From Planctomycetota bacterium (lineage in GTDB: Bacteria > Planctomycetota > UBA1135 > UBA2386): 64,000 nt of DNA. The notes beneath the pieces are model-generated. The model did not search any database and was not told the origin of the DNA. It was given only the letters and a program-made list of their open reading frames with translations. Location of the stretch: NCBI GenBank assembly GCA_051278165.1, contig JBNMNW010000002.1, positions 1,267 to 65,266 on the forward strand, given 5' to 3'. This document shows, piece after piece, positions 2,965-51,813 of the stretch. Both the position numbers and the translations under genes were made by a program. Within the stretch, counting starts at the first letter, position 1. Each line of letters starts with the position of its first letter.

Positions 2965-3534
2965 TTAGCGCATGCGGCGCAATTGGCGCAGCAGTTGCAG
3001 GTAGCGGCGGTCCTGGGTCAGGGTCCAAGCGGCCTGCGCGTCATACATCATCGCGTATTGGCTATTGAAGCCACGAGCGACACCGAGAATGGGATCGAAG
3101 CCGGCGGGGGCGGCGAGCACGTCGCTCAGCGGGGTTGATGCTTCGACGACTTGGGCCGACTCAGTCATAGACGCGTCCTCGATGCGCACATCGCGCATAC
3201 GCTTTTGGGACGCTTGGGCCGCACGACGGCTTTCGTTCGCCGTCTGTCCGTCTTGCTTGGCGTCCTTTTCGGCCTTGACGATTGCGTCGATGGTCAGATC
3301 GTCCTTCTCAATCTTGAAGACGCTCGACTTCGGCAGCAGGATCTCACCGCCTTCGGTGCGCACGTGGTAGCCATCGTCGTCTTCGGCGACCAGGACACCT
3401 TGGATTAGATTAGGGGAAGAACCAGCTGCCGTGTTTTGCTCGGACTTCGGATCGGTCAACCAGAACTTGTCGGCTTTTGCGGGGGCGCAAATCAGCAATA
3501 CGCCAGCGATCAGGGGGAGGTAACGCATGGTCAA
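2965..3534 (-). CDS. Hypothetical secreted protein
   Basis: Signal peptide MTMRYLPLIAGVLLICAPAKA. Composition is protein-like, and I recognise no family. Confidence 0.6.
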   Translation of the reverse strand: MTMRYLPLIAGVLLICAPAKADKFWLTDPKSEQNTAAGSSPNLIQGVLVAEDDDGYHVRTEGGEILLPKSSVFKIEKDDLTIDAIVKAEKDAKQDGQTANESRRAAQASQKRMRDVRIEDASMTESAQVVEASTPLSDVLAAPAGFDPILGVARGFNSQYAMMYDAQAAWTLTQDRRYLQLLRQLRRMR

Positions 3535-3623
3535 ATAGTAGCACGCGGCAGGCCAGCCGGTTGGGCGGTTGGGCCAGTGTGTGTTGGACTGAAGCGGAAC
3601 CTCCGGTGAGACTGGGCAGACTC

Positions 3624-6600
3624 ATGCGCTCGATTCTTTTCGGTGTTCTCCTCGCGGTTGTGTTGGCGGCTATGGCGATGGCCCAAGAAGGGCCGGCGTT
3701 CAAGCCGCTCTTTGATGGCGAAAGTCTCAGCGGTTGGCGCGGCGACCCGGCGGTCTGGAGCGTCACCGATGGCGTGATCGTTGGCTCGACGCATGGCATC
3801 AAGCTGAGCGCGAACACGTTCTTGATTCACGAAGGTGTGTTCGCGGACTTCGAGCTGCGCTGCAAGGTGAAGCTGGAAGGCGCCAACAACTCTGGCGTGC
3901 AATACCGCAGCCGTTTGCTCAAGCCGGACGGTTACCGAGTCGTCGGCTATCAGTGCGATTGGCACCCGAACCCGCCCTACTCCGCGATGCTCTATGACGA
4001 AGGCGGCGGCGGCATTGTCGCCGAGCGCGGTCAATTTGTGCGTTGGACGGATCAGGGGCGCCGCGAGCTTGGCCGACTGATCAAGCCAAAGGCGGTCGAC
4101 GTCAGCGGCTGGCACGACTTGCGGGTTGTGGCGCGTGGCGACTTGGTCTGGCACGAACTTGATGGGCGCATCGTCACGGCGCTGCAAGACCAACGTGCTT
4201 CGGCACCAAGAAGCGGCATCGTGGCGTTGCAGGCGCATCGCGGCCCGGCCATGAAGGTTTCGTTTCGTGACATCTCGGTGCGCTCGTTGACGAAGGCCGA
4301 TGACCTGGCCGTGCCAGGCGCCCTGCGCGCGCTGCTGCAACGTGCCGACCAGCAGGTGGTCGAGACCAAGACGCAGACGCCCAACTGGGTCTGGGACCAA
4401 GAGGCGCAAGGCGAGGAAGAGCTGTTCTTCCGACGCGGGTTTGATGTGCGTGAGGTGCCGGAAAAGGCGCGGCTCTCGGTCACTTGCGACAACAACTGTC
4501 GCGTCTACGTCAACGGCGCACGGGTCGCCAATGATGACTCGTGGGAGTCGCCGACGGTTGTCGACATCGCCAAGCAGCTGAAGTTGGGTCGCAACGTCGT
4601 CGCCGTGCATGGTTGGAACGACGGTGGACCAGCCGCGATGGCGCTGCGTATTGCTTGGCTCGAAAACGATAACGACGTCGAAGTCGTCACCGACAGCGAG
4701 TGGCGTTGCCACGACGACGATCCCGATGGTTGGGATACGGTCGCATTCGATGATTCCAAGTGGCAGGCCGTGCGGGTGCTCGGCGAGCTTGGCCAAAATG
4801 GCTTGGCGTGGTCCGGTCGCCACGGCGCGACGGCGCTGGGCCAGCAGGCGAATGCTTACGCCGAGCAGATCGCCATCGTCGATTGGGAAGTCGATAGTTC
4901 GGATGCCACGCAGACGCCGCCGATGCGGTTGCTCGACATCCCGCGCGAACTTGGTTCGTGGGTGTCGCTGGCTGCCGATCCACAGGGCCGTCTCTACTCG
5001 AGTGCTCAAGGTGGTGGCCTGTATCGCATCACGCCAGCCAAGCAGTTGGGCGACGCGACTTCGATCGAACGCGTTCCGGTCGAACTCGGCGGCGCGCACG
5101 GGATGTTGTGGTTCCGCAACTGCCTCTATGCGGTCGTCAACGGTGGCCAAGATGGCTTCTACCGACTGACCGATACCGATGGTGACGACATGCTCGACCA
5201 CGTCGAACTGCTGCGCGCACTCGACGGCAGTGGCGAGCATGGCCCGCACTCGGTCGTGGTCGCACCGGACGGCGAAAACCTGTTGGTGCTGTGCGGCAAC
5301 ATGACCAAGTTGACGGAGCTCGCGAGCAGTCGTGTGCCGACCAACTGGCAAGAAGAACGAGTCGTGCCGCGCATCGAAGATGCTCGCGGCTTCTGGGGCG
5401 GTTACTCGCCGCCCGGTGGTTGCCTCTACCAAGTGGATCCCGACGGCAAGCGTTGGGAATTGATCTGCTGCGGCTTCCGCAACCCGTTCGATCTCGTGGT
5501 GCTGCCCAATGGTCAGGTGGTCGTCTACGACGCCGACATGGAATGGGATATGGGCTTGCCGTGGTATCGCCCAACGCGCTACCTCGCCGGCCAGAGCGGG
5601 GTCGACTACGGTTGGCGTAAGGGCAGTGCCAAGTGGGCGACGGACTACCCCGAAGCGCCGCCTGCACTGCAGGACATCGGGCCCGGTTCACCAACCGGCA
5701 TGGCCTACGTGCCAGGTGCCAAGGGCGGCATCATCGGCCTCGATTGGACCTTCGGCACTGCCTACTTCGAAGGCAAGCCGTGGAACTTCGGCGCGCCCTT
5801 CCCGGTTGCCGACGTCACGTTCTCTAAGCGCATCGATGGTGGCGTGTATGTCGTCACTGGTGGTCGCGGCTTGCCGTCGCGTTTGCTGCGCCTGATTCCG
5901 GGTCGTGCGTCGGGCGAATACGAATTGGGTGATCAAGAAGCGCAGCGCGTAGCTACCTGGGGATCGGCGGTCGCATGGCCGGCAACGGAAGCGCGCACGG
6001 CGCAACAGATCCTCGATGCTGGTGCGATCGGTAGCGATCGTTTGGCGTTTCGCGGTACCCAACCTGCGCCGAAGCCAGACTGGGTGACGGCGCGCATCGC
6101 GCTAGAACGATTGCCTGCGGATCGTATCCGTGCCACCGTTCTCGCGGTCGATGCAGCGCGACCGGATCGTGCCTTCGCCGGCTTGCTAGCGCTCGCACGA
6201 CAGGGAACTGCTGGCGATTTGCAGCCGATCCTCGATGCGTTGGGCCAGTTCTCGTTCGCGCCGCTGGATCATAGTCAGCGCATTGCCTGGCTGCGCATCC
6301 ACGCCGTTGCGTTGCTGCGCCAAGGCCCCGCCAGCGACGCCCAGCGCGCCTTGGTTGCGAAGCGTCTGCTGCCGCTGTTCCCAGCGAACAACGAACGTCA
6401 AGACCAAGACCTGTGCGAATTACTCGCCTACGTTGACGCGCCCGGCTTGCTCGCGAAGGCTGTGCCGTTGTTGACGCCACTCAAGCCATCCGAGCCACCG
6501 GCATGGGCCGAACTGGCAACTCGCAACGCTAGCTACGGCGGCGTCATCGACAAGATGATGGCCAACATGACGCCGATGGGCCAGCTCACGATCGCCAACG

Positions 6601-7322
6601 CGCTGCGCATGGTCGATCACGATTGGACGATCGAGCAGCGGCGCACGCTGTTCACGTTCTTAGGCGAAGCGCGCGGGCGTTCCGGCGGGGCCAGCTACGA
6701 CGGCTACGTGCTGAAGATCGTCGACCTCGCCTGGCAGACTTGCAGCGACGACGAGAAGCGTGCCCTCGAGTTCTTGGTCGGCCGGGTGCGCGCGCCGAAC
6801 AACCAGTTCGCCAGCAAGCCGCCGAAGGGGCCAGGCAAGAACTGGCAGATGAGTGACATCGCGGCGCTCGTCGACGGCGGGTTTGATGGGCGCAGTGTGC
6901 AATCTGGCCGCAACCTGTTCCACGCCATTGGCTGCGCGTCGTGCCACTACTTCAAGGGCGCCGGCGGCTTTGGCGGTCCGGACCTGACCAGCTTGAAGAA
7001 CAAGTTCCGCGCCGAAGACCTGCTTGAGGCCGTGATCGACCCCAACAAGGTGATCAGCGACCAATACACCGGCCAGATACTGACCAAGAAGGATGGCACC
7101 GCGTTGTTTGGTATTGTCCACAAGACGTGGGATGGTGACATGGAGGTCTACGAGGTCATCCCGGCGGTTGCCGATGCGAAGCCAGTGCGCATCCCGATCG
7201 AACAGGTCGAGAAGGTCGCACCGTCGCCGCAATCGCCAATGCCCGCAGGCTTACTCAACCGCCTCTCCGCCGACGAGGTTCGTGATCTCGTCGCGTTCTT
7301 GATCGGCGCGAAGGGCAAGTGA
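3624..7322 (+). CDS. Large secreted PVC-type heme-binding dehydrogenase-like protein (DUF1080 N-terminal domain, beta-propeller/HEAT region, C-terminal cytochrome c)
   Basis: I place the start at ATG 3624 (MRSILFGVLLAVVLAAMAMAQE signal peptide) rather than 3477. FKPLFDGESLSGWRG is typical of DUF1080. The C-terminus has GCASCHYFKGAGGFGGPDLT (CxxCH). The architecture matches the Pirellula/Verrucomicrobium-type membrane-bound dehydrogenase plus heme-binding domain family. Confidence 0.8.
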   Translation: MRSILFGVLLAVVLAAMAMAQEGPAFKPLFDGESLSGWRGDPAVWSVTDGVIVGSTHGIKLSANTFLIHEGVFADFELRCKVKLEGANNSGVQYRSRLLKPDGYRVVGYQCDWHPNPPYSAMLYDEGGGGIVAERGQFVRWTDQGRRELGRLIKPKAVDVSGWHDLRVVARGDLVWHELDGRIVTALQDQRASAPRSGIVALQAHRGPAMKVSFRDISVRSLTKADDLAVPGALRALLQRADQQVVETKTQTPNWVWDQEAQGEEELFFRRGFDVREVPEKARLSVTCDNNCRVYVNGARVANDDSWESPTVVDIAKQLKLGRNVVAVHGWNDGGPAAMALRIAWLENDNDVEVVTDSEWRCHDDDPDGWDTVAFDDSKWQAVRVLGELGQNGLAWSGRHGATALGQQANAYAEQIAIVDWEVDSSDATQTPPMRLLDIPRELGSWVSLAADPQGRLYSSAQGGGLYRITPAKQLGDATSIERVPVELGGAHGMLWFRNCLYAVVNGGQDGFYRLTDTDGDDMLDHVELLRALDGSGEHGPHSVVVAPDGENLLVLCGNMTKLTELASSRVPTNWQEERVVPRIEDARGFWGGYSPPGGCLYQVDPDGKRWELICCGFRNPFDLVVLPNGQVVVYDADMEWDMGLPWYRPTRYLAGQSGVDYGWRKGSAKWATDYPEAPPALQDIGPGSPTGMAYVPGAKGGIIGLDWTFGTAYFEGKPWNFGAPFPVADVTFSKRIDGGVYVVTGGRGLPSRLLRLIPGRASGEYELGDQEAQRVATWGSAVAWPATEARTAQQILDAGAIGSDRLAFRGTQPAPKPDWVTARIALERLPADRIRATVLAVDAARPDRAFAGLLALARQGTAGDLQPILDALGQFSFAPLDHSQRIAWLRIHAVALLRQGPASDAQRALVAKRLLPLFPANNERQDQDLCELLAYVDAPGLLAKAVPLLTPLKPSEPPAWAELATRNASYGGVIDKMMANMTPMGQLTIANALRMVDHDWTIEQRRTLFTFLGEARGRSGGASYDGYVLKIVDLAWQTCSDDEKRALEFLVGRVRAPNNQFASKPPKGPGKNWQMSDIAALVDGGFDGRSVQSGRNLFHAIGCASCHYFKGAGGFGGPDLTSLKNKFRAEDLLEAVIDPNKVISDQYTGQILTKKDGTALFGIVHKTWDGDMEVYEVIPAVADAKPVRIPIEQVEKVAPSPQSPMPAGLLNRLSADEVRDLVAFLIGAKGK

Positions 7323-16026: not shown

Positions 16027-16719
16027 CTAATCGTGAGACGGCAGCAACACCTTGATCAGCACGAACCCGCCGATCAGCACGAGCGTGCCGAGCGTGGTCA
16101 CCAGCGCGAAGCGCTTCTCGATGAACTCCTTCATGCCAGGGCCGTAGCGTTTGAATAGCCACGCGACCAAGAAGAAGCGCGCCGAGCGGCCGACCGCCGA
16201 AGCGATCAAGAACATCGGGAAGTTGATTGCACAAACACCCGCCAGGATCGTGATCACCTTGTAGGGAATCGGCGTGAAGGCCGCGGCGAAGACGATCCAG
16301 AAGTCCCAGTTGCTGTAGAGCTCGCGCACCGACTCGACGGAGTGCGGGCTGACGCCCGGCACGTAGTCGTAGAAGAAGGTGCGCACGCCATCGTTCTCCC
16401 ACAGGAAGTATCCGATGCCGTAGCCCGCCATGCCGCCAACGACCGAGCCGATCGCGCACCAGGTGGCGAACCGGTAGCTCTTATTCACCGTGCCGATGCA
16501 CATCGCGATCAGCAACACGTCCGGCGGCACCGGGAAGAAGCTGCTCTCAGCGAACGCCAAGAAAAATAAGGCCGGCACCGCGTACGGCGTCGGAGCCCAG
16601 GCTAGCACCCAGTCGTACATGCGACGCGGGATGGTCGTGATCTTGGCCCAAAGGCCCTTGCCACCGGTTGGCTGACCGGCGTCCTTATCGGTGCTGTTCA
16701 CAGCGTTCCTATCGGCCAT
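16027..16719 (-). CDS. YqaA/DedA-family (SNARE-associated) membrane protein
   Basis: FAESSFFPVPPDVLL motif and multiple TM helices. The start is set at MADRNAV (16719), which overlaps the recJ stop by 11 nt. The longer 16896 start would overlap recJ extensively. Confidence 0.75.
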   Translation of the reverse strand: MADRNAVNSTDKDAGQPTGGKGLWAKITTIPRRMYDWVLAWAPTPYAVPALFFLAFAESSFFPVPPDVLLIAMCIGTVNKSYRFATWCAIGSVVGGMAGYGIGYFLWENDGVRTFFYDYVPGVSPHSVESVRELYSNWDFWIVFAAAFTPIPYKVITILAGVCAINFPMFLIASAVGRSARFFLVAWLFKRYGPGMKEFIEKRFALVTTLGTLVLIGGFVLIKVLLPSHD

Positions 16720-18460
16720 TGCGGTGTTCGTTCGTGCGCCCACTGCTGCGGCGCGGTTCGTTTCCGGCCGCCAGGTCGTGGATGTCAATTTGCACCGGCC
16801 CATCTTCACTGCGCGAACTGATGCGCGGCGTGTAGGCGATGCTCCATGGACCCTTGTTCTGGCGCAGGGTTTCAAAGTGCTCGGCGCCGCGCACAACCCG
16901 AGCCGGCATGATGTCGCGCCCTTTGGCGACGCGAACGCGCAGGTGCTGGCCGCGCGTATCGACGAACGGGTTGCCGATGATCTTGACGCCGTGGGTTACG
17001 AAGCGCGGTCGCGGATGCCCGTTACCGAACGGTCCTAGCGCCTCCATGCGGCGAATCGTTTGCGGCTCGAGCTCTGGGAACTCGGCCAGGCCGTCGACGC
17101 GGTAGGGGTGTTCTTTGGGCGCCAATCGCGCGCAGACAGCTGCGAAGCGTTCGCAGAACGCTGGGAAGTGTTCGCGCTTGATCTCCATGCCAGCGGCTGC
17201 CGCGTGGCCGCCGTGGGCTTCCAGTAGATCGGAGCACTCGCCGAGCGCGTCGCGCAGGTTGACGCCGTTCGTGCAGCGGCCAGAACCGCGTCCGATTTCG
17301 CCGTTGAACGCGAGCAGCATGACCGGCTTGGCGGTCGATTCCGCGATCCGTGCGGCGACGATGCCGAGCACGCCGGGGTGCCAGTTGTCCTGGCCGAGTA
17401 CGACGGCAGGGCCCGTGCCGCCAGCGATCAGCTGCTGCACTTCGTCTTGCAGCTGTCGTTCGACCTTACGGCGCGCTTCGTTGTGGCCTTCCAGCACCTT
17501 GGCGGCCTTTTGCGCGTCGGTGTAACTGGATGCACATAACAGGTCAACGGCGTCGTTGGCGTGGGCAACGCGACCGGCGGCGTTGATCAGCGGTGCGATG
17601 CGGAACGCGATGTCTTCGGGGCCAGCGCCGCGATGCAGCAAACCAGCAGCGTCCATGAGCGCGCGAATGCCAGGGTTGCGGCTCAATGACAGCGAGCGCA
17701 AGCCGTGGAACACCAGGGTGCGGTTCTCGCCATTCAGGGGAGCCACGTCGGCGACCGTGCCCATGGCGATGTATCCCATCGCATCGATCAGGAAGTCAGA
17801 GAACTCGGAGCTGCGCCGCATCGTGCCACTCAGCGACTCGGCGATCGCCGCGACCAAAGTGAACGCGACGCCGCAGCCCGCGAGGTTGCGATCGGGATAT
17901 CCGGCATCGGGCAGGCGCGGGTTGAGCACCGCGTAGGCGTCGGCGACGTTCTCGGTGGTGCCGTGGTGGTCGGTAATGATGACGTCGATGCCGCTCTTCT
18001 GCAGTTCGGCGATTGGCTTGATCGCGTTGGTGCCATTGTCGACCGAAATCACCAGCGGAAAGCCACCATCCTTGATCGCTTTGACACTCGCTGCGGAGAA
18101 CGAATAGCCGTCCTTGCGCGCCGGGATGTAGGGCTTGCTGTTGCAGTGCAGCAGCTTCAGGAACTTATGCAGTAAAACGGTGCCGCTAATTCCGTCGACG
18201 TCGTAGTCGCCGTGGATCAGGATCGGGTCGCCATTGCGCAGCGAAACCTGGACACGTTCCACGGCCTTCTGCATGTCCTTGAACTTGAAAGGGTCGTGCA
18301 GGCTGCCGAGATCCGGCCGCAAGAAGGATTTTGCAAGTTCGGGTGTGTCGATGCCACGCGCCAGTAGCACGCGCACGCAAAGGTCCGGCAAGCCAATGGA
18401 CCTGGCCAGCGCGGATTCGCGAGGATCAGGTCTTGGCGTCTCGAGTGCAGCGCGAAGCAT
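16709..18460 (-). CDS. recJ: Single-stranded-DNA-specific exonuclease RecJ
   Basis: DHH motifs LIHGDYDVDGISGT and IITDHHG, and the DHHA1 motif GGHAAAAG. The start is set at MLRAALETP (18460), and the exact start is uncertain. Confidence 0.9.
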   Translation of the reverse strand: MLRAALETPRPDPRESALARSIGLPDLCVRVLLARGIDTPELAKSFLRPDLGSLHDPFKFKDMQKAVERVQVSLRNGDPILIHGDYDVDGISGTVLLHKFLKLLHCNSKPYIPARKDGYSFSAASVKAIKDGGFPLVISVDNGTNAIKPIAELQKSGIDVIITDHHGTTENVADAYAVLNPRLPDAGYPDRNLAGCGVAFTLVAAIAESLSGTMRRSSEFSDFLIDAMGYIAMGTVADVAPLNGENRTLVFHGLRSLSLSRNPGIRALMDAAGLLHRGAGPEDIAFRIAPLINAAGRVAHANDAVDLLCASSYTDAQKAAKVLEGHNEARRKVERQLQDEVQQLIAGGTGPAVVLGQDNWHPGVLGIVAARIAESTAKPVMLLAFNGEIGRGSGRCTNGVNLRDALGECSDLLEAHGGHAAAAGMEIKREHFPAFCERFAAVCARLAPKEHPYRVDGLAEFPELEPQTIRRMEALGPFGNGHPRPRFVTHGVKIIGNPFVDTRGQHLRVRVAKGRDIMPARVVRGAEHFETLRQNKGPWSIAYTPRISSRSEDGPVQIDIHDLAAGNEPRRSSGRTNEHRNGR

Positions 18461-18493
18461 GTGGGGTGGGGTATGGTAGCGACCTATCCCGCG

Positions 18494-19879
18494 ATGCCCA
18501 GAACTGACGCCGACCGTTCTTCCGCACTGAGGCTTCTGCCCTCGGTGGACCATTTGCTTCGCCACGACGATTTTCAATTGTTGTCGCGTCCTGTGCTGAC
18601 CCGTGTCGTTCGCGGCCTGGTCGATCAACTGCGAAACGGGGCGCTAGATGGCTCGATTGACGCCGTTGCCATGGCGCAGCGTTGCGCCGGCGATGCCTTG
18701 GTGGCGACCGTGAAAGAACGCTGTGAGTCGGCTTCGCGTCGCCGGCATGAGCGGGTCTACAACGCGACCGGGATTGTTCTCCATACCGGGATCGGTCGAG
18801 CGCCGCTGGCCTCGTCGGCGATCGCAGCCATGACCCAGGCGGCGGGCTATGCAATTGTGGAAGTTGACCCGGTCACCGGCCAGCGCGACCAGCGTGAGGT
18901 GGCGGTGGCGGCGTTGCTGCAAGACCTGACCGGTGCCGGTGGCGCCGTGATCGTCAACAATAACGCGGCCGCGACGACCTTGATGCTGGCCGCTTTGACT
19001 GCCGACACCGAGGTGGTGATCTCGCGCGGTGAACTGGTCGAGATCGGTGGTGGCTTCCGCATTCCTGATGTGATGCGTCGCGCCGGCTGCACGATGGTGG
19101 AGGTCGGTGCGACCAACAAGACGCACCTCTACGACTTTGAGAGCGTGTCGAACGAACGCACTTCGGCCTACTTGAAGGTGCATCCGAGCAACTACCGCAT
19201 CGAAGGCTTCGCCGGCACGCCGTCGGTGGCCGAACTCAGTAAGCTCGCCAAAGAGCGCGGCCTGATGATGCTCGATGATCTCGGCTCTGGGTTGCTGTGG
19301 AACGAGCCACTGCCAGGCCTCGCCGGTGAGCCGCGCGTCTCCGACAGTCTCGGGCAGGGCGCCGATGTGACCTGCTTTAGCAGCGACAAGCTGTTGGGTG
19401 GCCCGCAATCCGGCATCTTGCTTGGCGACGCCGCGATGATCGCCCGCTGCCGTGCACACCCTCTGTATCGCGCCATGCGTTGCGACAAGTTGACGCTGGC
19501 AGCGTTGGAGGCGACCCTCTTGCTCTACCGCGATGGCAACCCGCTGGCCGCTGTGCCAACGCTGCGCATGCTGTCGGTGTCACAGGACGATCTGGAGAAC
19601 CGCGCCGGCGCCCTGTCGGTGATGCTGCAAGATCTGAATGCCGAGGTTGTTAGGAGCGAGTCATTCGCTGGCTCGGGAGCGAATCCCGCCAAGCCGCTGC
19701 AGAGCTTCGCGACGGCGATTCCGGGCGGGGACTCGCATTGTGACCGCTTGCGCGTGGCGCGGCCGGTCAGCGTGTTTGCGCGCGTCTCCGAAGGCCGCGT
19801 GCTGCTCGATGCGCGCACCCTGCTGCTCGAAGATCTTGACGTGGTAGCCCTGGCGGTTCGCCAAGCCTTGAGCGATTAG
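18494..19879 (+). CDS. selA: L-seryl-tRNA(Sec) selenium transferase
   Basis: VYNATGIVLHTGIGRA, VNNNAAAT, SRGELVEIGGGFRIPDVM and the PLP-lysine motif FSSDKLLGGPQSG. The start MPRTDADRSSALRLLPSVDHLL aligns with the SelA N-terminus. Confidence 0.9.
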   Translation: MPRTDADRSSALRLLPSVDHLLRHDDFQLLSRPVLTRVVRGLVDQLRNGALDGSIDAVAMAQRCAGDALVATVKERCESASRRRHERVYNATGIVLHTGIGRAPLASSAIAAMTQAAGYAIVEVDPVTGQRDQREVAVAALLQDLTGAGGAVIVNNNAAATTLMLAALTADTEVVISRGELVEIGGGFRIPDVMRRAGCTMVEVGATNKTHLYDFESVSNERTSAYLKVHPSNYRIEGFAGTPSVAELSKLAKERGLMMLDDLGSGLLWNEPLPGLAGEPRVSDSLGQGADVTCFSSDKLLGGPQSGILLGDAAMIARCRAHPLYRAMRCDKLTLAALEATLLLYRDGNPLAAVPTLRMLSVSQDDLENRAGALSVMLQDLNAEVVRSESFAGSGANPAKPLQSFATAIPGGDSHCDRLRVARPVSVFARVSEGRVLLDARTLLLEDLDVVALAVRQALSD

Positions 19880-19945
19880 TGCGGCTCTGGTTCCCGGTGG
19901 CGCGAGCAACTGTCGCGCCGCGAGTATACTCTAGGTTGACCTACT

Positions 19946-21013
19946 ATGGCTGAACCCACCAACGTTCGATTGACCCGCTACGCATCGAGTTCTGGTTGAG
20001 CAGCGAAGCTGCCACCAGGAAGCCTCGGGCAGGTTCTCCACCTACTAAAAGCGACTCCGAATCCCGATCTCCTCGCTGGCCATGCTGGCTTCGAGGATGC
20101 GGGAGTGATGCGTATCGATGACGAACGCGCGCTTGTTCAGACCCTCGACTTTTTCCCGCCAATCGTTGATGACCCGCGTTGGTTCGGCCGCATCGCCGCG
20201 GCGAACTCGCTGTCGGATGTCTACGCGATGGGGGGTAAACCGCTGACTGCGATGAACATCGTTGGTTGGCCAAAGGAACTCGACATCGCGATCCTCGGTG
20301 AAGTCATGGCCGGCGGCCTCGACAAGATCGAAGAGGCTGGAGCCGTCTTGTGCGGCGGCCACTCGGTCGTCGACAGCGAAGTCAAATACGGCTTGTCGGT
20401 TACCGGCATCGTGCATCCGCTGCGCTTCTGGCGAAACGCTGGCGCCAAAGAAGGCGACGCGTTGCTGATCACCAAGCCGCTCGGCATGGGAGCTGTTTCG
20501 ACGGCGATGAAGAAGGACAAGCTGGAGGACGGCGCTGCCAACTCGGCGATGACCGAGTCGGCCATGCATGTCATGGCGACGCTCAACAAGCTGGCCTGCG
20601 AGATTGCATCCGACTTTGACGTGCATGCCTGCACCGACATCACTGGCTTCGGCTTTGCCGGTCACTCGTGTGAGATGGCGCAGGACACTGGCCTACAGCT
20701 CGAAGTCGATACCGGGCATTTGCCGTTGATGGACGGCTCGCTCGAGTTGGTTCGCTCTGGCTCATTGTCCGGTGGCTGTGCGCGCGGCAAGGAGCACTTC
20801 GGTGGTCGCGTGCAGATCGAGAGCAGCGTCGATGCGGCCTTGGCCGACCTGGTGTTCGATGCCGAAACGTCGGGTGGTTTACTGATCGCTGTGCCTCAGG
20901 ATCAGGCGCAGAAGCTGTCGGATCGTTTGCGCGATGCTGGCGTGCCGAGTCACGCGATCGCTGGTCACTTCGTCAAGCGAAGTGATGACGCACCGCTGCT
21001 GCGCTTGAAGTAG
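19946..21013 (+). CDS. selD: Selenide, water dikinase (selenophosphate synthetase), selenocysteine-containing; TGA at 19997-19999 read as Sec
   Basis: Same frame as ORF 20105..21013. Upstream translation from ATG 19946 gives MAEPTNVRLTRYASSSG-U-AAKLPPGSLGQVL, which matches the SelD N-terminal loop (E. coli RLTQYSHGAGCGCK) with U at the Cys17 position. The core contains DFFPPIVDDPRWFGRIAAANSLSDVYAMGGKPL. Confidence 0.85.
19992..20032 (+). promoter_or_regulatory. Candidate bacterial SECIS region (two alternative hairpins at or just after the UGA)
   Basis: One hairpin is CTGGT-uga-GCAGC-gaa-GCTGC-c-ACCAG (19992-20018). The alternative is CTGCC...GGCAG (20009-20032), which starts 10 nt after the UGA. 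Both were folded by eye only. Confidence 0.35.
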
Positions 21014-21054
21014 CGCGCGCGGCATCGCCGTTGCTCACGTCCGACCTTGGCGCG

Positions 21055-22065
21055 TTAGCGCAGCAAACTCTGCTGGCGGTCGTTCAGCTGCGGCTTTGCT
21101 TGCTGGCCGTGGTTCTCGAGACTCAGCGTGAAGTTGGCGACCGAGGTCTTCTTGCGCGAGCGCTTTGGCAGGCCCTTTGAATACTCGAGGGGCTTGTTGT
21201 CCTCGGCTTCGTCTTCATCCTCGTTGGGCTCCGCTTCTTCGTCGTCGTCGCCAACGGCTTGGCCGACAGCTACGCGACCAGCGGCGAATGCAAAGACGCC
21301 ACCGTTTTGGTTGGCCTCGGTCCATGCGCGAACGCGGATCTGGTGCACTAAGTTGGTGCCTGGGTCGAGCGAGATCGCAAGGTCGATCGTCGTGTTTGGC
21401 GGCGTCGCTGCCCGACGTCCCGCGTTGCCGCCCATGACGATGTTGATAACTTGGCCGAAGTTGCCTTGCGATAGCGATTCCGGCAGGCTGCCTGACCACA
21501 TCAGTTCGCCGACTTGCTCGGCGTTGAGGGTGACCGAGACGACCTCGACCGGTCGGTCCTTGTAGGCGCCGGCTTCGCGGCGGGTGACCGCGAGTGGCCA
21601 TGACGCAAGTTGCTGAAGTAGCGCGTGGGCGTTCGGCACGAACGTGACCTTGTTGCCATCGGCGAAGTGACCGCTGCGCAGGCACCAATCACGGTCCTTA
21701 TCGCGGGCAATCATGTTGCCGCCGGCCAGCAGCAGTTCGTCCGTCTCATCGCCGCCGAATTGGATGTGGGTGCGGCCTTCGTGCCACGAGCCAGTGACGT
21801 TGCCAGACGCGGCTTGGCCCATCATCGCGGCAAATGGGTTGTTCTCCTTGGCCTTCTTGTCAGGTCCCCACTTGATCGTGAAGCCAGTGTCGGCGGTCTT
21901 GGCCGTCTTGGTCAACGCGCGGGTGAGGCGCTTCTTGAGCGCGACTTTGGCGGCGATCGCCGGGTCGACTGGGGCCTTGGTGTCCTGGGCGCACAGCGTG
22001 GCTGGCAGCAGGCAGGAAGAGATGACGAGGAGGAGGGTGGCTCTCATGGCGGCGTGTTGACGCAT
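21055..22065 (-). CDS. Hypothetical secreted protein with acidic stretch
   Basis: Signal peptide MRQHAAMRATLLLVISSCLLPATLCAQ. The start could be 22137, 22065 or 22047. It has a DDDEEAEPNEDEDEAEDNK tract and no recognised family. Confidence 0.6.
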   Translation of the reverse strand: MRQHAAMRATLLLVISSCLLPATLCAQDTKAPVDPAIAAKVALKKRLTRALTKTAKTADTGFTIKWGPDKKAKENNPFAAMMGQAASGNVTGSWHEGRTHIQFGGDETDELLLAGGNMIARDKDRDWCLRSGHFADGNKVTFVPNAHALLQQLASWPLAVTRREAGAYKDRPVEVVSVTLNAEQVGELMWSGSLPESLSQGNFGQVINIVMGGNAGRRAATPPNTTIDLAISLDPGTNLVHQIRVRAWTEANQNGGVFAFAAGRVAVGQAVGDDDEEAEPNEDEDEAEDNKPLEYSKGLPKRSRKKTSVANFTLSLENHGQQAKPQLNDRQQSLLR

Positions 22066-22176
22066 GGTAAGCCAGAAAGCTTCGCAATGGCCGCGCAAGG
22101 GCACGCTTCGGGGCGGAAAGGCCCTGGGTTGCGCCACGCATCTGGCGCTCCATCGCGGATTTTTGGACCCTAGATG

Positions 22177-22731
22177 CTAGACCGCGGACGGTGGCTCGTC
22201 GTCTTTCACGGGGTCCGCCGGCGGCTCGGCGGCGGACGGCTCAATTGCTGGCGCTTCGTCTGCTGCTGCTTCGGATACCGCTGCTTCGTCGGGCGCGGGG
22301 GCTTCGGTTGCCGGAGATACAGCGGGGGAATCGCCAGTCGCATCATCGCCGGTCGCACCATCGCCTGCCGTCTCACCCTCAGGATGAAGTTCGTTCAGCA
22401 GCTTGTTCATGCGGATCGCCGCGCCGATGCCTTCGTCGAACAGGAACTCAAGGTGGGGGACTGAGCGCGTGTGCAGCACTCGAGCCATCTCACGCTGACA
22501 GAAGCCGCGCGCGCGGCCGAGCACGGCGGCGCTGTCGCGCTTGGCCTTCTCTTCTTGGTCCGAGCCTGCGAGCACCGACCAGTAAGCCTTGCAGTGGCTG
22601 AACTCGGTATCGAGCTCGACGCGCGTGATGGTGACCATGCCAAGCTTGGGATCGGCTAGGTCACGATGCAGCACCTCAGCGAGGCGCTGTTTGATCTGTT
22701 GCTTGAGGCGTGCGAGGCGGCGTTCGTTCAT
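22177..22731 (-). CDS. rbfA: Ribosome-binding factor A with long acidic C-terminal tail
   Basis: The N-terminal ~115 aa are RbfA-like (RLARLKQQIKQRLAEVL..ITRVELDTEFSHCKAYWSV). It lies in the nusA-infB operon context. Confidence 0.85.
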   Translation of the reverse strand: MNERRLARLKQQIKQRLAEVLHRDLADPKLGMVTITRVELDTEFSHCKAYWSVLAGSDQEEKAKRDSAAVLGRARGFCQREMARVLHTRSVPHLEFLFDEGIGAAIRMNKLLNELHPEGETAGDGATGDDATGDSPAVSPATEAPAPDEAAVSEAAADEAPAIEPSAAEPPADPVKDDEPPSAV

Positions 22732-22771
22732 TGCTCTGGGTACTCAGGACCTTGCTACTCGGGCGATCCGC

Positions 22772-23065
22772 TCACTCAGGTGAGAGGATCTCAAGCTGAT
22801 GGTCGATCATCGAGCCATCGCGCCAGTCGCGCAGCTCGTTGACTAAATGGTCCATCGACGAGTTCACGTTCTTGTGGTCGCTACCGGCGACTACGGCGCC
22901 AAGGGTCGCATACGTCACGGCGTCTTGGTCTGCAAACTCAGTGATCGAGACGTTGAACGACCGGCGTAGCCGATCCTTCAAGCTCTTGACCACTGAGCGC
23001 TTTTCCTTAAGCGACACCGCGTAGGGGATCTCCAAGGTGAATTGCAGGACTCCGATGTAGAGCAT
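22772..23065 (-). CDS. DUF503 (YlxP-like) protein
   Basis: MLYIGVLQFTLEIPYAVSLKEKRSVVKSLKDRL. It occupies the conserved position between infB and rbfA. The start is moved from 23119 to 23065. Confidence 0.8.
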   Translation of the reverse strand: MLYIGVLQFTLEIPYAVSLKEKRSVVKSLKDRLRRSFNVSITEFADQDAVTYATLGAVVAGSDHKNVNSSMDHLVNELRDWRDGSMIDHQLEILSPE

Positions 23066-23146
23066 GGTGCTTCGGGTGCACGGCTCCGGCGATCGTAGGT
23101 GCTGCACCGCTGCCGTCACCAGCTAGGTTCCGGCAGGGCGGCGCGA

Positions 23147-26074
23147 TCACTTCGAATCGCCCAGCTTGCGCTTGATGAGATCGATCTGCACGAACTCGAG
23201 GTTGTCGCCTTCGCGCAGGTCTTGGAAGCCGTCGAGCGTCATGCCGCATTCGAAGCCAGTTTTGACTTCCTTTGCGTCTTCGGTCTCGCGGCGAAGACTC
23301 GCCAGCTTGCCGTTGTAAATGACCTTGCCACCACGTGACAGCCGCACGATCGAACTGCGTCGAGCGACGCCGTCGATAACGCGACAACCAGCGATGATGC
23401 CAAACTTCGAAGACTTGAAGGTCGCGCGGACTTCGGCGTGGCCGATGACCGATTGAACTTCTTGCGGTGCGAGCACGCCTTCCATGGCGTCCCTGACCTG
23501 ATCGAGCAGCTCGTAGATGATCGAGTAGTAACGGATGTCGACGCCCTGGACATCGGCCAGCGCACGCACATTGGCGTCCGCAACCGTGTTGAAGCCGACG
23601 ATGACGGCGCCGGAAGTCGCTGCAAGGTCGACGTCGGCCTTGTTGATTCCGCCGAGGCCGGAGTGCACCACGTTGACGCGAACTTCGCTGGTGGCGAGTT
23701 CGTCGAGGCACTTGCGCACCGGTTCGAGTGAACCCATGGCGTCTGCCTTGAGGATCAGCTTGACCTCCTTAAGGCTGCGCTCAGCGAGCCTGGCCGAAAG
23801 GGTTTCGAGCGTGACAGCCGAACGTTCGGCGCGCGACAGTTCGCGCACGCGGCGTTGACGTTCTTCGACGACTTCCTTGGCCTTCTTGGCGTTCTCGACC
23901 ACGAACAGCTTGTCGCCCGGGGTCGGAATACGGTCGAGGCCGAACATCGTGATCGGCGTCGCCGGTCCCGCTTCGGTCAGGTTCTTGCCGTGGTCGTCGA
24001 TCATCGCGCGGATGCGCGAGAAGCTTTCGCCACAGACAATCTGGTCCTTGAGGCGCAGCGTGCCATCGGTGACCAGCAAGGTCACAACGATGCCCTGCTC
24101 GGCTGATTGCTTGGCTTCGACGACGATACCCTTAGCCGGTGCATCCGGACGGGCGTTGAGGTCGAGCAGTTCCGCTTCGAGGTGCACGCGTTCGACCAGC
24201 TCCGGCAGACCTTGAAGGGTCTTGGAGGAGCATTCGATCATGCCAATCTCGCCGCCGAAGTCTTCGGACTGTAGGCCCTTGACCATCAACTGCTGCTTGA
24301 CCTGCATCGGGTTGGCCTGCGGCAGGTCGCACTTGGTGATCGCAACCACGATCGGGCAGTTGGCTGCCTTGGCGTGGCTGATCGCCTCTTCCGTTTGCGG
24401 CATGACACCGTCATCGGCAGCGACGACGAGCACAACCACATCGGTCAGCTCGGCACCGCGTGCCCGCATCGCGGTAAACGCGGCGTGGCCGGGCGTGTCG
24501 AGCACGACGATGGCGAGGCCATCTTCGTTGACGACCTTGTAGGCGCCAATGTGTTGGGTGATGCCGCCGGCTTCGTGACGCGCAATGTCACTCGACCGCA
24601 GCGCGTCCATCAACGACGTCTTACCGTGGTCGACGTGGCCCATGAAGGTCACAACCGGAGCGCGTTCCGCCGTTGCCTGGCCTTCGCTTTCTTCGACGAG
24701 CTGTTCGATCAGCTCATCCATGGCAGCCTTGGCGTCGACGACCTTGATGTTCCGCTCGAGCTCCATCGCGATGAGTTCGACCTCATCGTTGGTCAACATC
24801 GAGTTGATGTTTTTGCCACCGATCTTGAGACGGAACGCGAACGTCGCGATCAGCTCATTGACCTTGATGCCGATTCCTTCGGACAGTGCCTTCATCGACA
24901 CTGGCTCTTGGACTTCGATCACCTTCGTCGGATCGATCGGCGTCGAGATACGGCCCCGACGCGACGGACCGCCACGGGAATCGCGGCCACCGCGCGATGC
25001 GGGACCACGGCGGTTGCCGGGGCTCTGACGCATGGTGCCACGCTGCTGCATCTTCTGCAGAGCGGCACGGCGAAGGTCGCGAGGTGCGGCCGGCGCCGAG
25101 CGGCGGGTTGCGTCGCGAATGGTTTCTTGCGGCAGTTCGATACGGCCGAGCACGGTCGCCTTCTTCTGCGGCACGAGAAGCTTACGAACCGTTCCCTTGC
25201 CGGAGGCTGGCTGTTCGGCCACCGGAGGGGCCGGAGTCACCGGAATCCTCGTGATCGGCATCATCGTAGGACCCCTTCGGACGGCTGCTGCTCGCTCCGC
25301 CTGGGAGCCTGTGGCGCCGGCTGCCGGGGCTTGAGCTGCCGGGGCCTGAGCTGCCGGTGTCTGAGCTGCCGGGGATTGAGCTGCCGGGGATTGAGCTGCC
25401 GGGGCCTGAGCTGCCGGGGCCTGAGCGGCCGGGGCCTGAGCGGCCGGGGCCTGAGCTGCCGGGGCTTGAGCTGCCGGGGCTTGTGCTGCCGGTGTCTGTG
25501 CTGCCGGTGTCTGCGCTGCCGGTGCCTTGGCGGCAGGTGCAACGACCTCGGCGGGAGCCGCAGGCTTCGCTACGGGAGCTGCCGGTGCTTCAGGCTTCTT
25601 CTCCGGCGCAGCTTCGGTTGCAGCTTGGCCGATCGGAGTCTTCGGTACCGGTTTTTCTGCTACTGGCTCAACAGCAGCCTCTGCCAGCGTCTTGCGCGGC
25701 GGTGGAGTTGCTGTTTGCGGCTCGTCGAGAGTCGGTGCGCTGGGCAGACGACGCTTGGGATCGGGCAGAGCCTTCTTATTCAGGGTTGGCTTCTTCGGCA
25801 GTGCCTTCTTGGACGGAAGACCGTCATCCTCAGCAGCTGCACTCAGTGAGCGCTTCTTTGGTAGACCGCCGGCGCCGCCGCTAGCAGCTTCCGCAGGTTT
25901 ACGCACCCGCCCTTGAGCGGATAGACGCGCTTCGACCATCATCATGTCGGCGTCGTCCAGAGCGGTCATGTGCGTCTTGACTTTTTCGAAGCCAATCTCA
26001 CGCAAGAGCTTCGCCATCTCGGGGCCCTTCATCCCGAATTCTTTGGCCAGTTCGAAGACTCGTACCTTTTTCAA
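23147..26074 (-). CDS. infB: Translation initiation factor IF-2
   Basis: GTPase motifs [24 protein letters not shown] and AITKCD. The N-terminus [14 protein letters not shown] is typical of IF-2. Confidence 0.95.
25321..25530. repeat. About 14 tandem 15-bp units inside infB encoding (PAAQ[A/T/S])n
   Basis: The unit ctgccggggcNtgag recurs every 15 nt from 25321. In the protein it reads [20 protein letters not shown]... Confidence 0.9.
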
Positions 26075-26207
26075 ATCGCGTTTGCTCCTCAGTCAAGGCC
26101 GTTCACAACGGAAGGCCATTGCCTGGTTGTTCTGTGCTCTTGCGTGCGTGGTGGGTTTGTAAATTCAGTCGCGTGATGAGTGCGTGCGGCAGCTTCGGCG
26201 CGAACGG

Positions 26208-27425
26208 TTAGTTCGGGCTGTCAGCGGTGCCTGCACTGCCGGGGGTGTCCCCAGCTGGTGACTCATCTCGTGGTGTTTCTTCTGCCGGCGCTTCCGCAAC
26301 CGGTTTGTTAGCTTCTTGGGTGCCTGCATCCGGAGCATCTGCTGCCAGAGGATCTGCCGGTGCTTCCGCAGCGACATTCTCAGCAGTGACTTCCTCGGCA
26401 GCTACATCCTTGGCAGCAATAGTTTCGTTCTCGGCTGCCACTGCAGCATCCGCTGCAGCATCTTCTGCGGCGCCGTCTTCGGCAACCGATTGCTCAAGCT
26501 CGGCGCGCGTCATGATGTCAATGTCCCAGCCCGTCAGCTTGCTGGCGAGGCGGACGTTTTGGCCCTTGCGGCCAATTGCCAGTGATTGCTGGTCTTCACC
26601 AACGATCACAAGCGCCTTCTTGACGTCGTAGTCGAGCGTGATGTCGCCGACTTCGGCGGGCTTCAGCGCGTTGGCGATCAGCGTCATCGGCTCGCCGTTC
26701 CAGCGAATGATGTCGATGCGTTCGCCGTTGAGTTCGTCGATGATCGACTTGATGCGGTTGCCGCGCACGCCAACGCATGCACCAACGCAATCGACCTTGT
26801 CGTCGCTCGAGTCGACCGCCAGCTTGGTGCGGTAACCCGGCTCACGCTCGATGCGTCGAATCGTGATCGTGCTGTCCGCGATTTCCGGAACTTCGAGTTC
26901 GAACAGTGCGCGGACGAGGTCGCGGTGGGTGCGGCTCAGGATGACCTTGACGCGTGGCCCGACCTTCTTGACCTCGAACACCATCGCGCGGATGCGTTCG
27001 CCGACATTGTAGTTTTCGCTGCGGACCTTTTCGGAGCGCGGCAGGATGCCTTCGAGGTTGCGACCGAGGTTGACGATGACCGTGTCACCTTCGAACCGTT
27101 GAATGTTGCCGCTGACGATCTCGCCGAGCTTCGACTCGTATTCGGCGTAGATGACGTCGCGCTCGGCTTCGCGCACCTTGGAGATGATCGCTTGCTTGAC
27201 CGACATCGCAAAGATGCGGCCCTGATCTTCCATCGAGACCTCGTAGTTGCAGACGAATTCGCCCGTCTCACGATCGAGGGTGATGTCGACATCATCGACG
27301 CCATACTTCTTCGCAAGCGCGTGAGACATCGCATCCTCGATGCCTTCGATCAGCGCTTCCTTATCGATCTCCTTGTCGCGAGCGATGGAGTCGATGTAGC
27401 GGAGGATTTCAGCGTGGTTGGCCAT
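26208..27425 (-). CDS. nusA: Transcription termination/antitermination factor NusA with acidic Ala/Glu/Pro tail
   Basis: S1 domain (VSGNIQRFEGDTVIVNLG) and KH domains (GACVGVRGNRIKSIIDEL, AIGRKGQNVRLASKLTGW). It sits directly upstream of infB. Confidence 0.95.
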   Translation of the reverse strand: MANHAEILRYIDSIARDKEIDKEALIEGIEDAMSHALAKKYGVDDVDITLDRETGEFVCNYEVSMEDQGRIFAMSVKQAIISKVREAERDVIYAEYESKLGEIVSGNIQRFEGDTVIVNLGRNLEGILPRSEKVRSENYNVGERIRAMVFEVKKVGPRVKVILSRTHRDLVRALFELEVPEIADSTITIRRIEREPGYRTKLAVDSSDDKVDCVGACVGVRGNRIKSIIDELNGERIDIIRWNGEPMTLIANALKPAEVGDITLDYDVKKALVIVGEDQQSLAIGRKGQNVRLASKLTGWDIDIMTRAELEQSVAEDGAAEDAAADAAVAAENETIAAKDVAAEEVTAENVAAEAPADPLAADAPDAGTQEANKPVAEAPAEETPRDESPAGDTPGSAGTADSPN

Positions 27426-47020: not shown

Positions 47021-47659
47021 ATGACTGCAACCGACGCACCGGACGCCGCGTCCGTCGGCAACACGGCCACGGGGCAAAGCCCCGCGGATGCCGTTAGCCA
47101 GGCCACAAGTAAGGCCTCAAAGGAGCCGGAAACGGCGACGCCAGCCAAAGTGGAAGTGCCGCCATCTCTGCGCGGCAACAAAGACCAAGACAGCCAGGGC
47201 ACACAGGTTGTGAGCTTCCGTCTTGGCGAAGAGGAGTACGGAGTCAACATCATGACTGTGCAGGAGATCATTCTGATCGGCTGCATTACACAGGTGCCAG
47301 AGGTTCCCGAGCATGTGCTCGGTGTGATCAACCTGCGTGGCAATGTGATCCCGATCCTGAATCTCCGCTGCCGCTTTGGCATGCCGGATCAAGAGCCGGA
47401 GGACGCAACACGCATTGTCGTGATGAACCTCAACGGCCGCACGGTGGGAGTCGTCGTCGACGCGGTCAGCGAAGTGCTGCGCCTGACGGACGATGACGTT
47501 TCGCCGACGCCGCAGTCCCTTACCGGTGCAGGTAAGGACTACATCATTGGCCTCGCCCAAAGCGGCGAGCGCCTACTAATTCTGTTGGACATGGCTCGCT
47601 TGCTGGGTGGCAACGAGCTCGGGGTAATCACCAATCAAGTTTCGAAGGGAGAGTCGTAA
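47021..47659 (+). CDS. cheW: Chemotaxis coupling protein CheW with ~60-aa disordered N-terminal extension
   Basis: VVSFRLGEEEYGVNIMTVQEIILIGCITQVPEVPEHVLGVINLRGNVIPILNLR. An AGGAGG Shine-Dalgarno precedes the ATG. Confidence 0.9.
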   Translation: MTATDAPDAASVGNTATGQSPADAVSQATSKASKEPETATPAKVEVPPSLRGNKDQDSQGTQVVSFRLGEEEYGVNIMTVQEIILIGCITQVPEVPEHVLGVINLRGNVIPILNLRCRFGMPDQEPEDATRIVVMNLNGRTVGVVVDAVSEVLRLTDDDVSPTPQSLTGAGKDYIIGLAQSGERLLILLDMARLLGGNELGVITNQVSKGES

Positions 47660-47662
47660 GAG

Positions 47663-49732
47663 ATGACAACCAAAATGAACCAGCCTGACCTTGCTCAGGC
47701 ATTGAATGTTGCGACGGCGAACGTGTTCGTCATCGATTCTGATCTGCAGATTGAGTTCTGTAATCGTCAGGCATTGCAGTCATGCAACCAGCTGCAACAG
47801 GCTCTGACATCGGTCGGACTCTCCGTGAATCAACTGGTCGGTAGCTCATTTGAACGGGTCGTAGGTAGCGCTGCAAACCAGTTGCGACAGGCCGCTGGTG
47901 GCGCTTGGAGCTGCCAGGTAGATCTCGGTGACGAGACCCTCAAGTTCGAGGGTAATGCCATGCAGGCCGAAGACGGCAGCTTCTCTGGCGCCGTCGTGAC
48001 TTGGGAGATCGTTACCACCGCTCTCGAAGAGACCAAACTTGTCGATGGGCAGCGCAAGCTGGTCGAAGCGATGAGTGGCGAGCAGGCGGTCATTGAGTTC
48101 GATCTCGGAGGTAATGTCGTGACTGCCAACGACAATTTCTGTGCGGCGATCGGCTATTCACTTGGCGAGATCCAAGGTAAGCACCACCGCACGTTCGTTA
48201 CGCCTGAATACGCCGCTTCGCCGGAGTATCGTGAGTTCTGGGCGAAGCTCAACCGGGGTGAGTCAGACACTGGTGACTACCTGCGCATTTGCAAGGGCGG
48301 TCGCGAACTCTGGATCAACGCCACCTACTTCCCGATCACCGACGAGAGCGGCAAGCCGGTCAAGGTTGTCAAGTTTGCGACGGACATCACTGCCCAGCGC
48401 AACGATGCGCAATCGGCGAAGAGGTCTGCCGATGCCATGAACGCGGTCGCGACCAACATTCTGGTTTGCGATGAATCGTTCAACATCATCTATGGCAACG
48501 AGAAGTCTGCTGCGACTCTTCGAACCCTCGATGCGGTTCTGAGCGAGAAGTTCGGCGTGCGAGCGGACCAGGTTGTGGGTGGGTCGATTGACCGCTTCCA
48601 CAAGGATAAGAGTCACCAGCGCTCGCTGCTGGTTGCCTTGCGCGGTCGCAACCACACCGCTGAGTTCCAGTTGGCAAACGAAGTCCTGTCCCTGAGCGCT
48701 AGTGGCTTGTTTGACGCCGCCGGCAACTTCTCTGGTGCCGTGGTCAACTGGGAGGTGATCACCGAGCAGAAGAAGCAGGAAGCGGCCATCGCGGCGCGTG
48801 CGGAGGCCGAATCGGTGGCTGCCAACGACTTGCGCCAAAAGGTCGACTCGCTGTTGAACGTGGTCGAAGAGGCTGCGAAGGGTGACCTCACGGCGGAACA
48901 CACCGTCGAGGGAGATGACCCGATTGGGCAACTCGGTGGTGGCTTGCGCCGCATGATCACCGACCTGCGCTCCATCATCGTGCAGATCAAGGAAGGTGCC
49001 GAGCAGTTCAGCGCAAGTGCTGGCACGATCTCGAACGCCTCGAGCAGTCTGTCCGAAGCCTCGCAGACGAACGCTGCGACGGTGGAAGAGATGACGGCTT
49101 CGGTTGACCAGTTGACCGAGAGCATCCGCATGATTGCTCAGAACGCGTCGGATGCAAACTCGATTGCCGACGAAACCAGTCGCCGAGCCGGTGCTGGTGG
49201 CGAAGCGGTCGATCGCTCGATCACGGCGATGAAGGAGATCAACCGCTCGAGTGAGCAGATCAGTGAGATCATCCAGGTGATCAGTGAGATCGCGAGCCAG
49301 ACCAACCTGTTGGCCTTGAACGCGGCGATCGAAGCTGCGCGCGCTGGCGAGCACGGTCTCGGTTTCGCGGTTGTTGCTGACGAAGTCCGCAAGCTGGCGG
49401 AGCGCAGTAGCGAAGCGGCCAAGCAGATCACGGGCTTGATCCGTGAGTCGACGCAACGGGTGGTCGAGGGCACGAAGTTGTCCGAGGATACCGGGAAGGC
49501 TCTGAAGCAGATCATCGAGGGCGTGACTAGCACGGCCGAGTCGATCTCGCAGATCGCAAGTGCAACGGACGAGCAATCGGCCACCGCCGGGGAAGTTGCC
49601 CGCGCGATTCAGAATGTCGCGAAGTTGACCGAGAACAACTCGGGCAACGCCACCGACATGGCTGCATCCGCTGAAGAGCTGTCCGCTCAGGCGATTGCTC
49701 TGAAGGAACTTGTTCGTCGCTTCACGATCTGA
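47663..49732 (+). CDS. Soluble (no TM) methyl-accepting chemotaxis protein with PAS-like N-terminal modules
   Basis: Signalling hairpin [39 protein letters not shown]. There is no hydrophobic segment, and the N-terminal half has repeated PAS-like blocks. Confidence 0.9.
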
Positions 49733-49792
49733 TCGTGACAACTTACGAGGCCGGCGTTTCGCCGGCCTCGTGCATCTAGGAAGGGGAACTGC

Positions 49793-51790: not shown

Positions 51791-51813
51791 AGACTGAGCA
51801 AGTATCTATAACT

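Follow-up and report, generated by a model that had tools for sequence, protein, structure and literature searches.

The 64,000-nt stretch of Planctomycetota DNA analysed here (hereafter the window) very probably carries the selA-selD pair of a marine Planctomycetota lineage, in which selD encodes a 355-residue selenophosphate synthetase with selenocysteine (Sec) in the loop SSG-U-AAK, specified by an in-frame UGA that a downstream hairpin and SelB are proposed to decode and at which gene callers truncate the product. A sequence-only reading of this DNA had claimed that selD encodes a selenoprotein and that the ORF track conceals its N-terminal catalytic loop, and this claim is borne out by the family score, the alignment, the 96 relatives with TGA at the same codon, the synteny with a Cys-type relative and the adjoining selA. 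The selD gene is a correctly called gene of a known kind, overlooked by public annotation in this lineage. The coordinates of the features discussed below are collected in Table 1.

Table 1. Features of the selA-selD region and tRNA-Sec genes near selD in more distant Planctomycetota (window coordinates unless a locus is named)
Feature	Position	Strand	Remarks
selA, L-seryl-tRNA(Sec) selenium transferase	18461..19879	+	453 bits to TIGR00474 (cutoff 267.9)
selD, full-length CDS	19946..21013	+	355 codons and stop; residue 18 is UGA (predicted selenocysteine)
selD start codon, ATG	19946..19948	+	first start after the in-frame stop; relatives start alike
Sec18 codon, TGA	19997..19999	+	catalytic position, opposite E. 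coli Cys17
Lys21 codon, AAG	20006..20008	+	corresponds to Lys20, which is essential in E. coli SelD
Hairpin H1	19990..20020	+	first hairpin of the sequence-only reading; encloses the UGA
Hairpin B (fold B)	20009..20032	+	second hairpin of the sequence-only reading; loop AAG 20020-20022; CCU arm shared with hairpin A
Hairpin A	20017..20039	+	arms 20017-20025 and 20031-20039; loop CGGGC 20026-20030
tRNA-Sec, locus L030	2866-2963		within about 100 nt downstream of selD
tRNA-Sec, locus L033	11108-11205		within about 100 nt downstream of selD
tRNA-Sec, locus L054	11117-11214		within about 100 nt downstream of selD
tRNA-Sec, locus L075	11103-11200		within about 100 nt downstream of selD
tRNA-Sec, locus L016	16732-16829		a few kb away from selD

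The selD frame is preceded by an in-frame TGA stop at 19937-19939, after which the ATG is the next start codon, and the products of the closest relatives begin (MAES... or MADT...) at the matching position. From there the frame reads MAEPTNVRLTRYASSSG, the TGA codon and then AAKLPPGSLGQVLHLLKATPNPDLLAGHAGFEDAGV (in a shorter quotation after the TGA, AAKLPPGSLGQVL); it contains no other internal stop, remains open through the tracked ORF that begins at GTG 20105, and ends with TAG at 21011-21013, in keeping with the earlier description of one frame joining that ORF across a single TGA. Scored with Cys in place of the TGA, the read-through product reaches 363.7 bits against TIGR00476 (cutoff 125), over residues 8-320 and hence from a point well upstream of the tracked ORF, and 315.6 bits against NF002098 (cutoff 299). 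Among solved structures, E. coli SelD (3u0o) is the best match (phmmer, E=2e-64, residues 5-338), and the alignment places residue 18, the TGA, opposite Cys17 and Lys21 opposite Lys20, which agrees with the positions assigned to both residues from the sequence alone. E. coli SelD activity requires Cys17 and Lys20. Additionally, the A. aeolicus SelD chain 2yye has SSGCAAK where the window has SSG-TGA-AAK; this crystal form (also PDB 2zod) is the Sec13Cys mutant of the natural A. aeolicus selenoprotein. By its family score and its N-terminal glycine-rich loop with Sec/Cys and Lys, the window gene is SelD, a predicted selenophosphate synthetase.

The DNA of 80 genomic relatives was collected and translated through the TGA site. 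The codon corresponding to Sec18 is TGA in 65 of these loci, including every one from Planctomycetota, and TGY in the other 15; it is also TGA in each of the 31 metagenomic relatives whose sequence reaches the N-terminus, four of which share 90-93% protein identity with the window gene and come from marine samples (TARA, JGI marine metagenomes). By codon, the totals are 96 TGA-type and 16 TGY-type relatives, one of the latter (L121) being syntenic with the window. The motif G-[U/C]-x-x-K occurs in 111/111 relatives (80 genomic and 31 metagenomic), and the residues flanking the TGA on either side are conserved as RLTxYASxxG*AAKLPPGSLGQVL. Thus, in selD an in-frame UGA stands opposite the Cys of homologues with both flanks conserved, the pattern by which a Sec-UGA gene is recognised. 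The syntenic Cys-type relative (P0029/L121, 65% identity) has TGT at the Sec18 codon, is called at full length (350 aa) and matches the window in gene order (recJ-selA-selD-rbfA-DUF503-infB). Elsewhere in the window, TGA is the ordinary stop of infB, of a methyl-accepting chemotaxis protein (MCP) gene and of the gene at 3477-7322, which indicates that the genetic code is standard and that the selD UGA is a case of site-specific recoding. As a separate observation, 30 of 38 relatives use GGU for the Gly directly before the UGA (19994-19996, alignment A2 columns 10-12; entropy 0.86 bits), unlike the GGC preferred elsewhere, and the 5′ context of the Sec codon may be constrained.

The gene directly upstream of selD was correctly identified as selA in the earlier work: it matches TIGR00474 over profile positions 1-454 of 455, is intact, and ends 66 nt before selD. 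The adjacency of the two genes is kept in loci L016, L033 and L117-L121. To our knowledge, the only role of SelA is to make Sec-tRNA(Sec), and for this reason a conserved, adjoining selA is the best available proxy for Sec decoding. On identical contigs the selA start is called at 18473 or 18545, together with a shorter recJ; the mechanical selA ORF (GTG 18461) overlaps the 5′ end of the opposite-strand mechanical recJ ORF over 18461-18628.

Searches of the window itself returned neither selB nor tRNA-Sec, as the sequence-only reading had stated. No tRNA gene of any kind was found in the 64 kb, and the only match to the selB model is the IF-2 gene at 23147-26074 (86.5 bits against a cutoff of 242). 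Among close relatives, no tRNA was found within ±10 kb of selD. When 1,118 long ORFs from 121 fetched sequences were searched with an approximate E. coli SelB query, all Planctomycetota matches were IF-2, and selB was found only beside selD in loci from outside the phylum. A tRNA-Sec gene with anticodon UCA lies near selD in five more distant Planctomycetota loci (Table 1). Among 28 further long ORFs of the window (searched with NCBIfam for 8 and Pfam for 20), the families seen belong to housekeeping, chemotaxis and transport, with no selU/ybbB, fdhA, selB or other selenium gene. No convincing candidate emerged from a rough search of the window for other in-frame TGAs flanked by coding signal; its top-ranked frames are antisense to known genes, and the search is insensitive, selD itself not ranking high.

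A conserved stem-loop does follow the TGA, although it is not among the two hairpins originally listed. An alignment of 38 Planctomycetota selD genes over positions 19985-20050 is gapless, and RNAalifold, unaided, predicts from it one hairpin (columns 34-41/47-54), which with one more pair corresponds to hairpin A. In this register, 91.6% of alignment cells form standard pairs, compared with at most 63% after shifting the 3′ arm by 1-3 columns. Columns 37 and 51 covary, as A-U in 24 sequences and G-C in 13, counts that ignore phylogeny; on its 3′ side the pair uses the wobble base of Val30 (GUU/GUC), which tracks an amino-acid change in the other arm, from Ser AGC to Asp or Gly GAC/GGC. The second base of the loop, G (column 43), is invariant in 38/38 sequences.

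Selection on this element is also visible at synonymous sites. In a whole-gene selD codon alignment, the third-base entropy of fourfold-degenerate codons was computed in 133 sliding windows, and residues 25-31, with five such columns, have the lowest mean of all (0.60 bits against 1.25 gene-wide). Gly25 is GGG in 25/29 sequences and Gly28 in 26/27, compared with a G third base in 18% of Gly codons elsewhere in the gene, while Val30 is GUU in 24/35, compared with a U third base in 7% of other Val codons; entropy is ordinary (1.1-1.8 bits) at residues 19-24, where the 5′ arms of hairpin H1 and fold B lie. At each of the five constrained sites, the Cys-type L121 departs from the Sec-type consensus (it has GGC, CUA, GGA, GUG and CUG), and its version of hairpin A folds at -1.0 kcal/mol, the hairpin being lost, which implies that the constraint is tied to the UGA. 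At the family level, covariation, synonymous constraint and loss in the Cys-type gene together point to a stem-loop after the UGA that is under selection. We conclude that hairpin A is the candidate SECIS of the selD family, to which SelB would bind.

In the window itself, hairpin A is weakened. Its outermost pair is mismatched, as is 20020(A)/20036(C), the latter because Gly25 is GGA here and in the three nearest relatives; the hairpin has an energy of -3.5 kcal/mol and a pair probability of about 0. Relatives in which hairpin A dominates have exactly this loop and these five closing pairs. Of the two candidate bSECIS hairpins proposed from the sequence alone, both can form, but the first lacks comparative support and the second, the favoured fold in the window, is not conserved outside the close clade. 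This second one, fold B, has an energy of -10.5 to -10.6 kcal/mol and a pair probability of 0.84-0.95 when 9-14 nt after the UGA are treated as covered by the ribosome, and with these UGA-adjacent nucleotides occupied it dominates over hairpin A in the window and its three nearest relatives; across relatives, 79% of its cells are paired, and it is broken beyond the close clade. Hairpin H1 dominates the free RNA of the window (-16.2 kcal/mol; z -3.3 against dinucleotide shuffles), a stability that stems from complementarity in the conserved peptide between its Gly and Pro codons and between its Ala and Leu codons. It was rejected as a SECIS element on three grounds: it is not conserved (412/500 column shuffles reach the observed pairing), it is unexceptional when the same peptide is recoded synonymously (z -0.99, with 18% of recodings folding equally well), and it contains the UGA and would melt under the decoding ribosome.

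Bulk folding energy provides no evidence for a SECIS element. Dinucleotide-shuffle z-scores for the region 3′ of the UGA are unremarkable (-0.4 to -1.2), and in the window this region folds no better than its synonymous recodings (z +0.54). Across 104 selD genes, the minimum free energy relative to synonymous recoding does not differ significantly between Sec-type (mean z -0.54) and Cys-type (-0.21) genes (p=0.21).

Only one feature of selD is even mildly unusual: in the marine subclade, which comprises the window and loci L081-L084, the ancestral hairpin is weakened and an alternative fold stands beside it. The synonymous change GGG to GGA at 20020 would destabilise the family hairpin A in this subclade and would shift the balance to fold B, whose stem begins about 9-11 nt past the UGA, together with a stable hairpin sequestering the UGA in free mRNA. 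That the ancestral SECIS hairpin has thereby been remodelled, either as a register switch in progress or as a toggle tuning SelD synthesis to selenium supply, is a speculative reading that we consider unlikely.

A 7-pair hairpin in a nearby register, +29 to +47 from the U of the UGA, occurs in a sister clade of 19 Planctomycetota selD genes, with compensatory changes at 5/7 pairs, and this different placement suggests that the SECIS register varies between clades of one phylum. The sister-clade hairpin is of the type GCGCAG-GUN-CUGCGC (L019, L023-L029, L035-L073; alignment A3). No Rfam match, to a curated SECIS family or otherwise, was obtained for the whole window at the gathering threshold or for 19900-20150 at E≤10. 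Bacterial SECIS elements are variable and poorly captured by a single model (PMC12013277), and the lack of an Rfam match for the selD hairpin fits this known variability.

Compared with the E. coli fdhF SECIS and the bSECISearch consensus, the window stem-loop is likewise located within the ORF, shortly after the UGA. The consensus that Zhang and Gladyshev are said to have set out in 2005 reportedly has its apical loop in a 16-37 nt range with G as the second loop base; the loop of hairpin A falls within that range and has the same second base. Hairpin A has no sequence similarity to the fdhF element, however, and about 18-21 nt, not 11 nt, separate its stem from the UGA. Sec-containing SelD is known from Aquifex aeolicus, Haemophilus influenzae, Geobacter and Clostridia. 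The window gene shares with these bacterial enzymes the fold family (TIGR00476, AIRS and AIRS_C domains), the motif SSG-U-AAK as in A. aeolicus, a UGA at the Cys17-equivalent position and a hairpin within the coding sequence after the UGA; it differs in lineage (marine Planctomycetota), in the sequence and register of the hairpin, and in the A.C mismatch of its own copy. Its loop lies 26 nt after the UGA; in the SelD SECIS of Acetomicrobium mobile the distance is about 17 nt (PMC13326102). With the Cys-type E. coli SelD (3u0o), the window protein shares Lys20 and the glycine-rich loop, but the E. coli enzyme has Cys17, encoded by TGY with no recoding required, where the window codon is UGA. 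No bacterial selenoproteins are more widespread than SelD and FdhA (PMC1794560), in accordance with the initial remark that Sec-SelD is well known in bacteria.

We infer that Sec is inserted at the selD UGA. By analogy with E. coli, Moorella and Aquifex, when a ribosome reaches this codon, a stem-loop within the next roughly 45 nt of coding sequence would recruit SelB, GTP and Sec-tRNA(Sec), and Sec would then enter the chain in place of termination by release factor 2. The best candidate for this stem-loop is hairpin A, which in the window retains its loop and five closing pairs, and the second is the overlapping fold B. SelA would make the Sec-tRNA(Sec) from selenophosphate produced by SelD, and in this way the synthesis of SelD depends on its own product. 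No decoding agent, neither tRNA-Sec nor selB, is seen in the window, and Cys serves at this position in many SelD proteins (15/80 loci; P0029), which leaves some room for the UGA to be decoded otherwise, either by a Cys-charged tRNA-Cys with anticodon UCA delivered by SelB or by near-cognate read-through, yielding a Cys- or Trp-type SelD. Such decoding is nevertheless very improbable, because it would leave unexplained an intact and conserved selA whose only known role is in Sec-tRNA(Sec) synthesis, a conserved hairpin under synonymous constraint 3′ of the UGA, and the genuine tRNA-Sec genes that flank selD in related Planctomycetota.

Gene callers halt at the UGA and resume at GTG 20105 or ATG 20108, giving a 301- or 302-residue product without the catalytic loop and leaving a false 229-nt "intergenic" gap behind selA. 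The exact 301-residue C-terminal product is found on at least 15 independent contigs and is always called short; datasets with the identical gene include Logan SRR28417279, Logan SRR28417637 and JGI 3300047667. Nearly all close database homologues are likewise N-terminally short, beginning either just past the TGA ([M/L]PPGSLGQVL) or at a downstream Met, a signature of callers stopping at a Sec codon. Misannotation of SelD is frequent in GenBank and RefSeq and is a documented, routine problem (PMC13326102).

The uniformity of these calls, both for the identical sequence and for the close protein-database homologues, could be taken to mean that the callers are right, SelD starting at GTG 20105 or ATG 20108 and 19946-20104 being an untranslated leader or a separate 17-codon uORF. 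This is scarcely credible, given that the 53 codons upstream of 20105 are conserved at the protein level down to relatives of 44% identity and can be aligned to the catalytic loop seen in SelD structures, that the Cys-type relative is called at its full 350 aa, and that the short product has no counterparts of Cys17 and Lys20, both required for activity in E. coli SelD. The orthologue comparison suggested alongside the sequence-only reading therefore came out in its favour. An internal stop in a gene with an otherwise intact product might also denote a pseudogene, arising by nonsense mutation or sequencing error, a proposal effectively refuted by the identical TGA at the same codon in 96 independent relatives, by the identical C-terminal product encoded in at least 15 independent assemblies, and by the lack of further stops or frameshifts together with conservation on either side of the TGA that fits purifying selection. 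A pseudogene, a sequencing error and a true start at 20105 are excluded for practical purposes.

A Sec-UGA at the SelD catalytic residue is a well-known arrangement that is routinely mis-annotated as a shortened gene, and the existing knowledge of selenium biology is unchanged by the finding. Its main value lies in annotation, since the public calls for this sequence and its close relatives, including NCBI-annotated MAG proteins, are without the catalytic loop. Furthermore, by its predicted Sec codon this marine Planctomycetota lineage can be recognised as a selenocysteine user, and the clade-specific SECIS hairpin could help to find further selenoprotein genes in these genomes.

Several observations concern the surroundings of the pair. 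The gene order over 16709-27425 is recJ(-), selA(+), selD(+), a 330-360 aa protein(-), rbfA(-), DUF503(-), infB(-) and nusA(-), and it is kept in L117-L121, which comprise identical contigs and the Cys-type L121, where selA is retained. The 360-aa ORF at 21055-22137 (- strand), directly downstream of and convergent with selD, has no NCBIfam match, and its counterparts of 330-360 aa in relatives have no Pfam match. A chemotaxis cluster occupies 47021-53348 (+ strand), with CheW, a PAS-containing methyl-accepting protein, CheA and CheB. At 3477-7322 (+ strand), a 1281-aa protein carries a C-terminal CxxCH heme-binding domain (TIGR02603) and weakly matches TIGR02604, the N-terminal domain of PVC-type heme-binding proteins, which fits a Planctomycetota origin.
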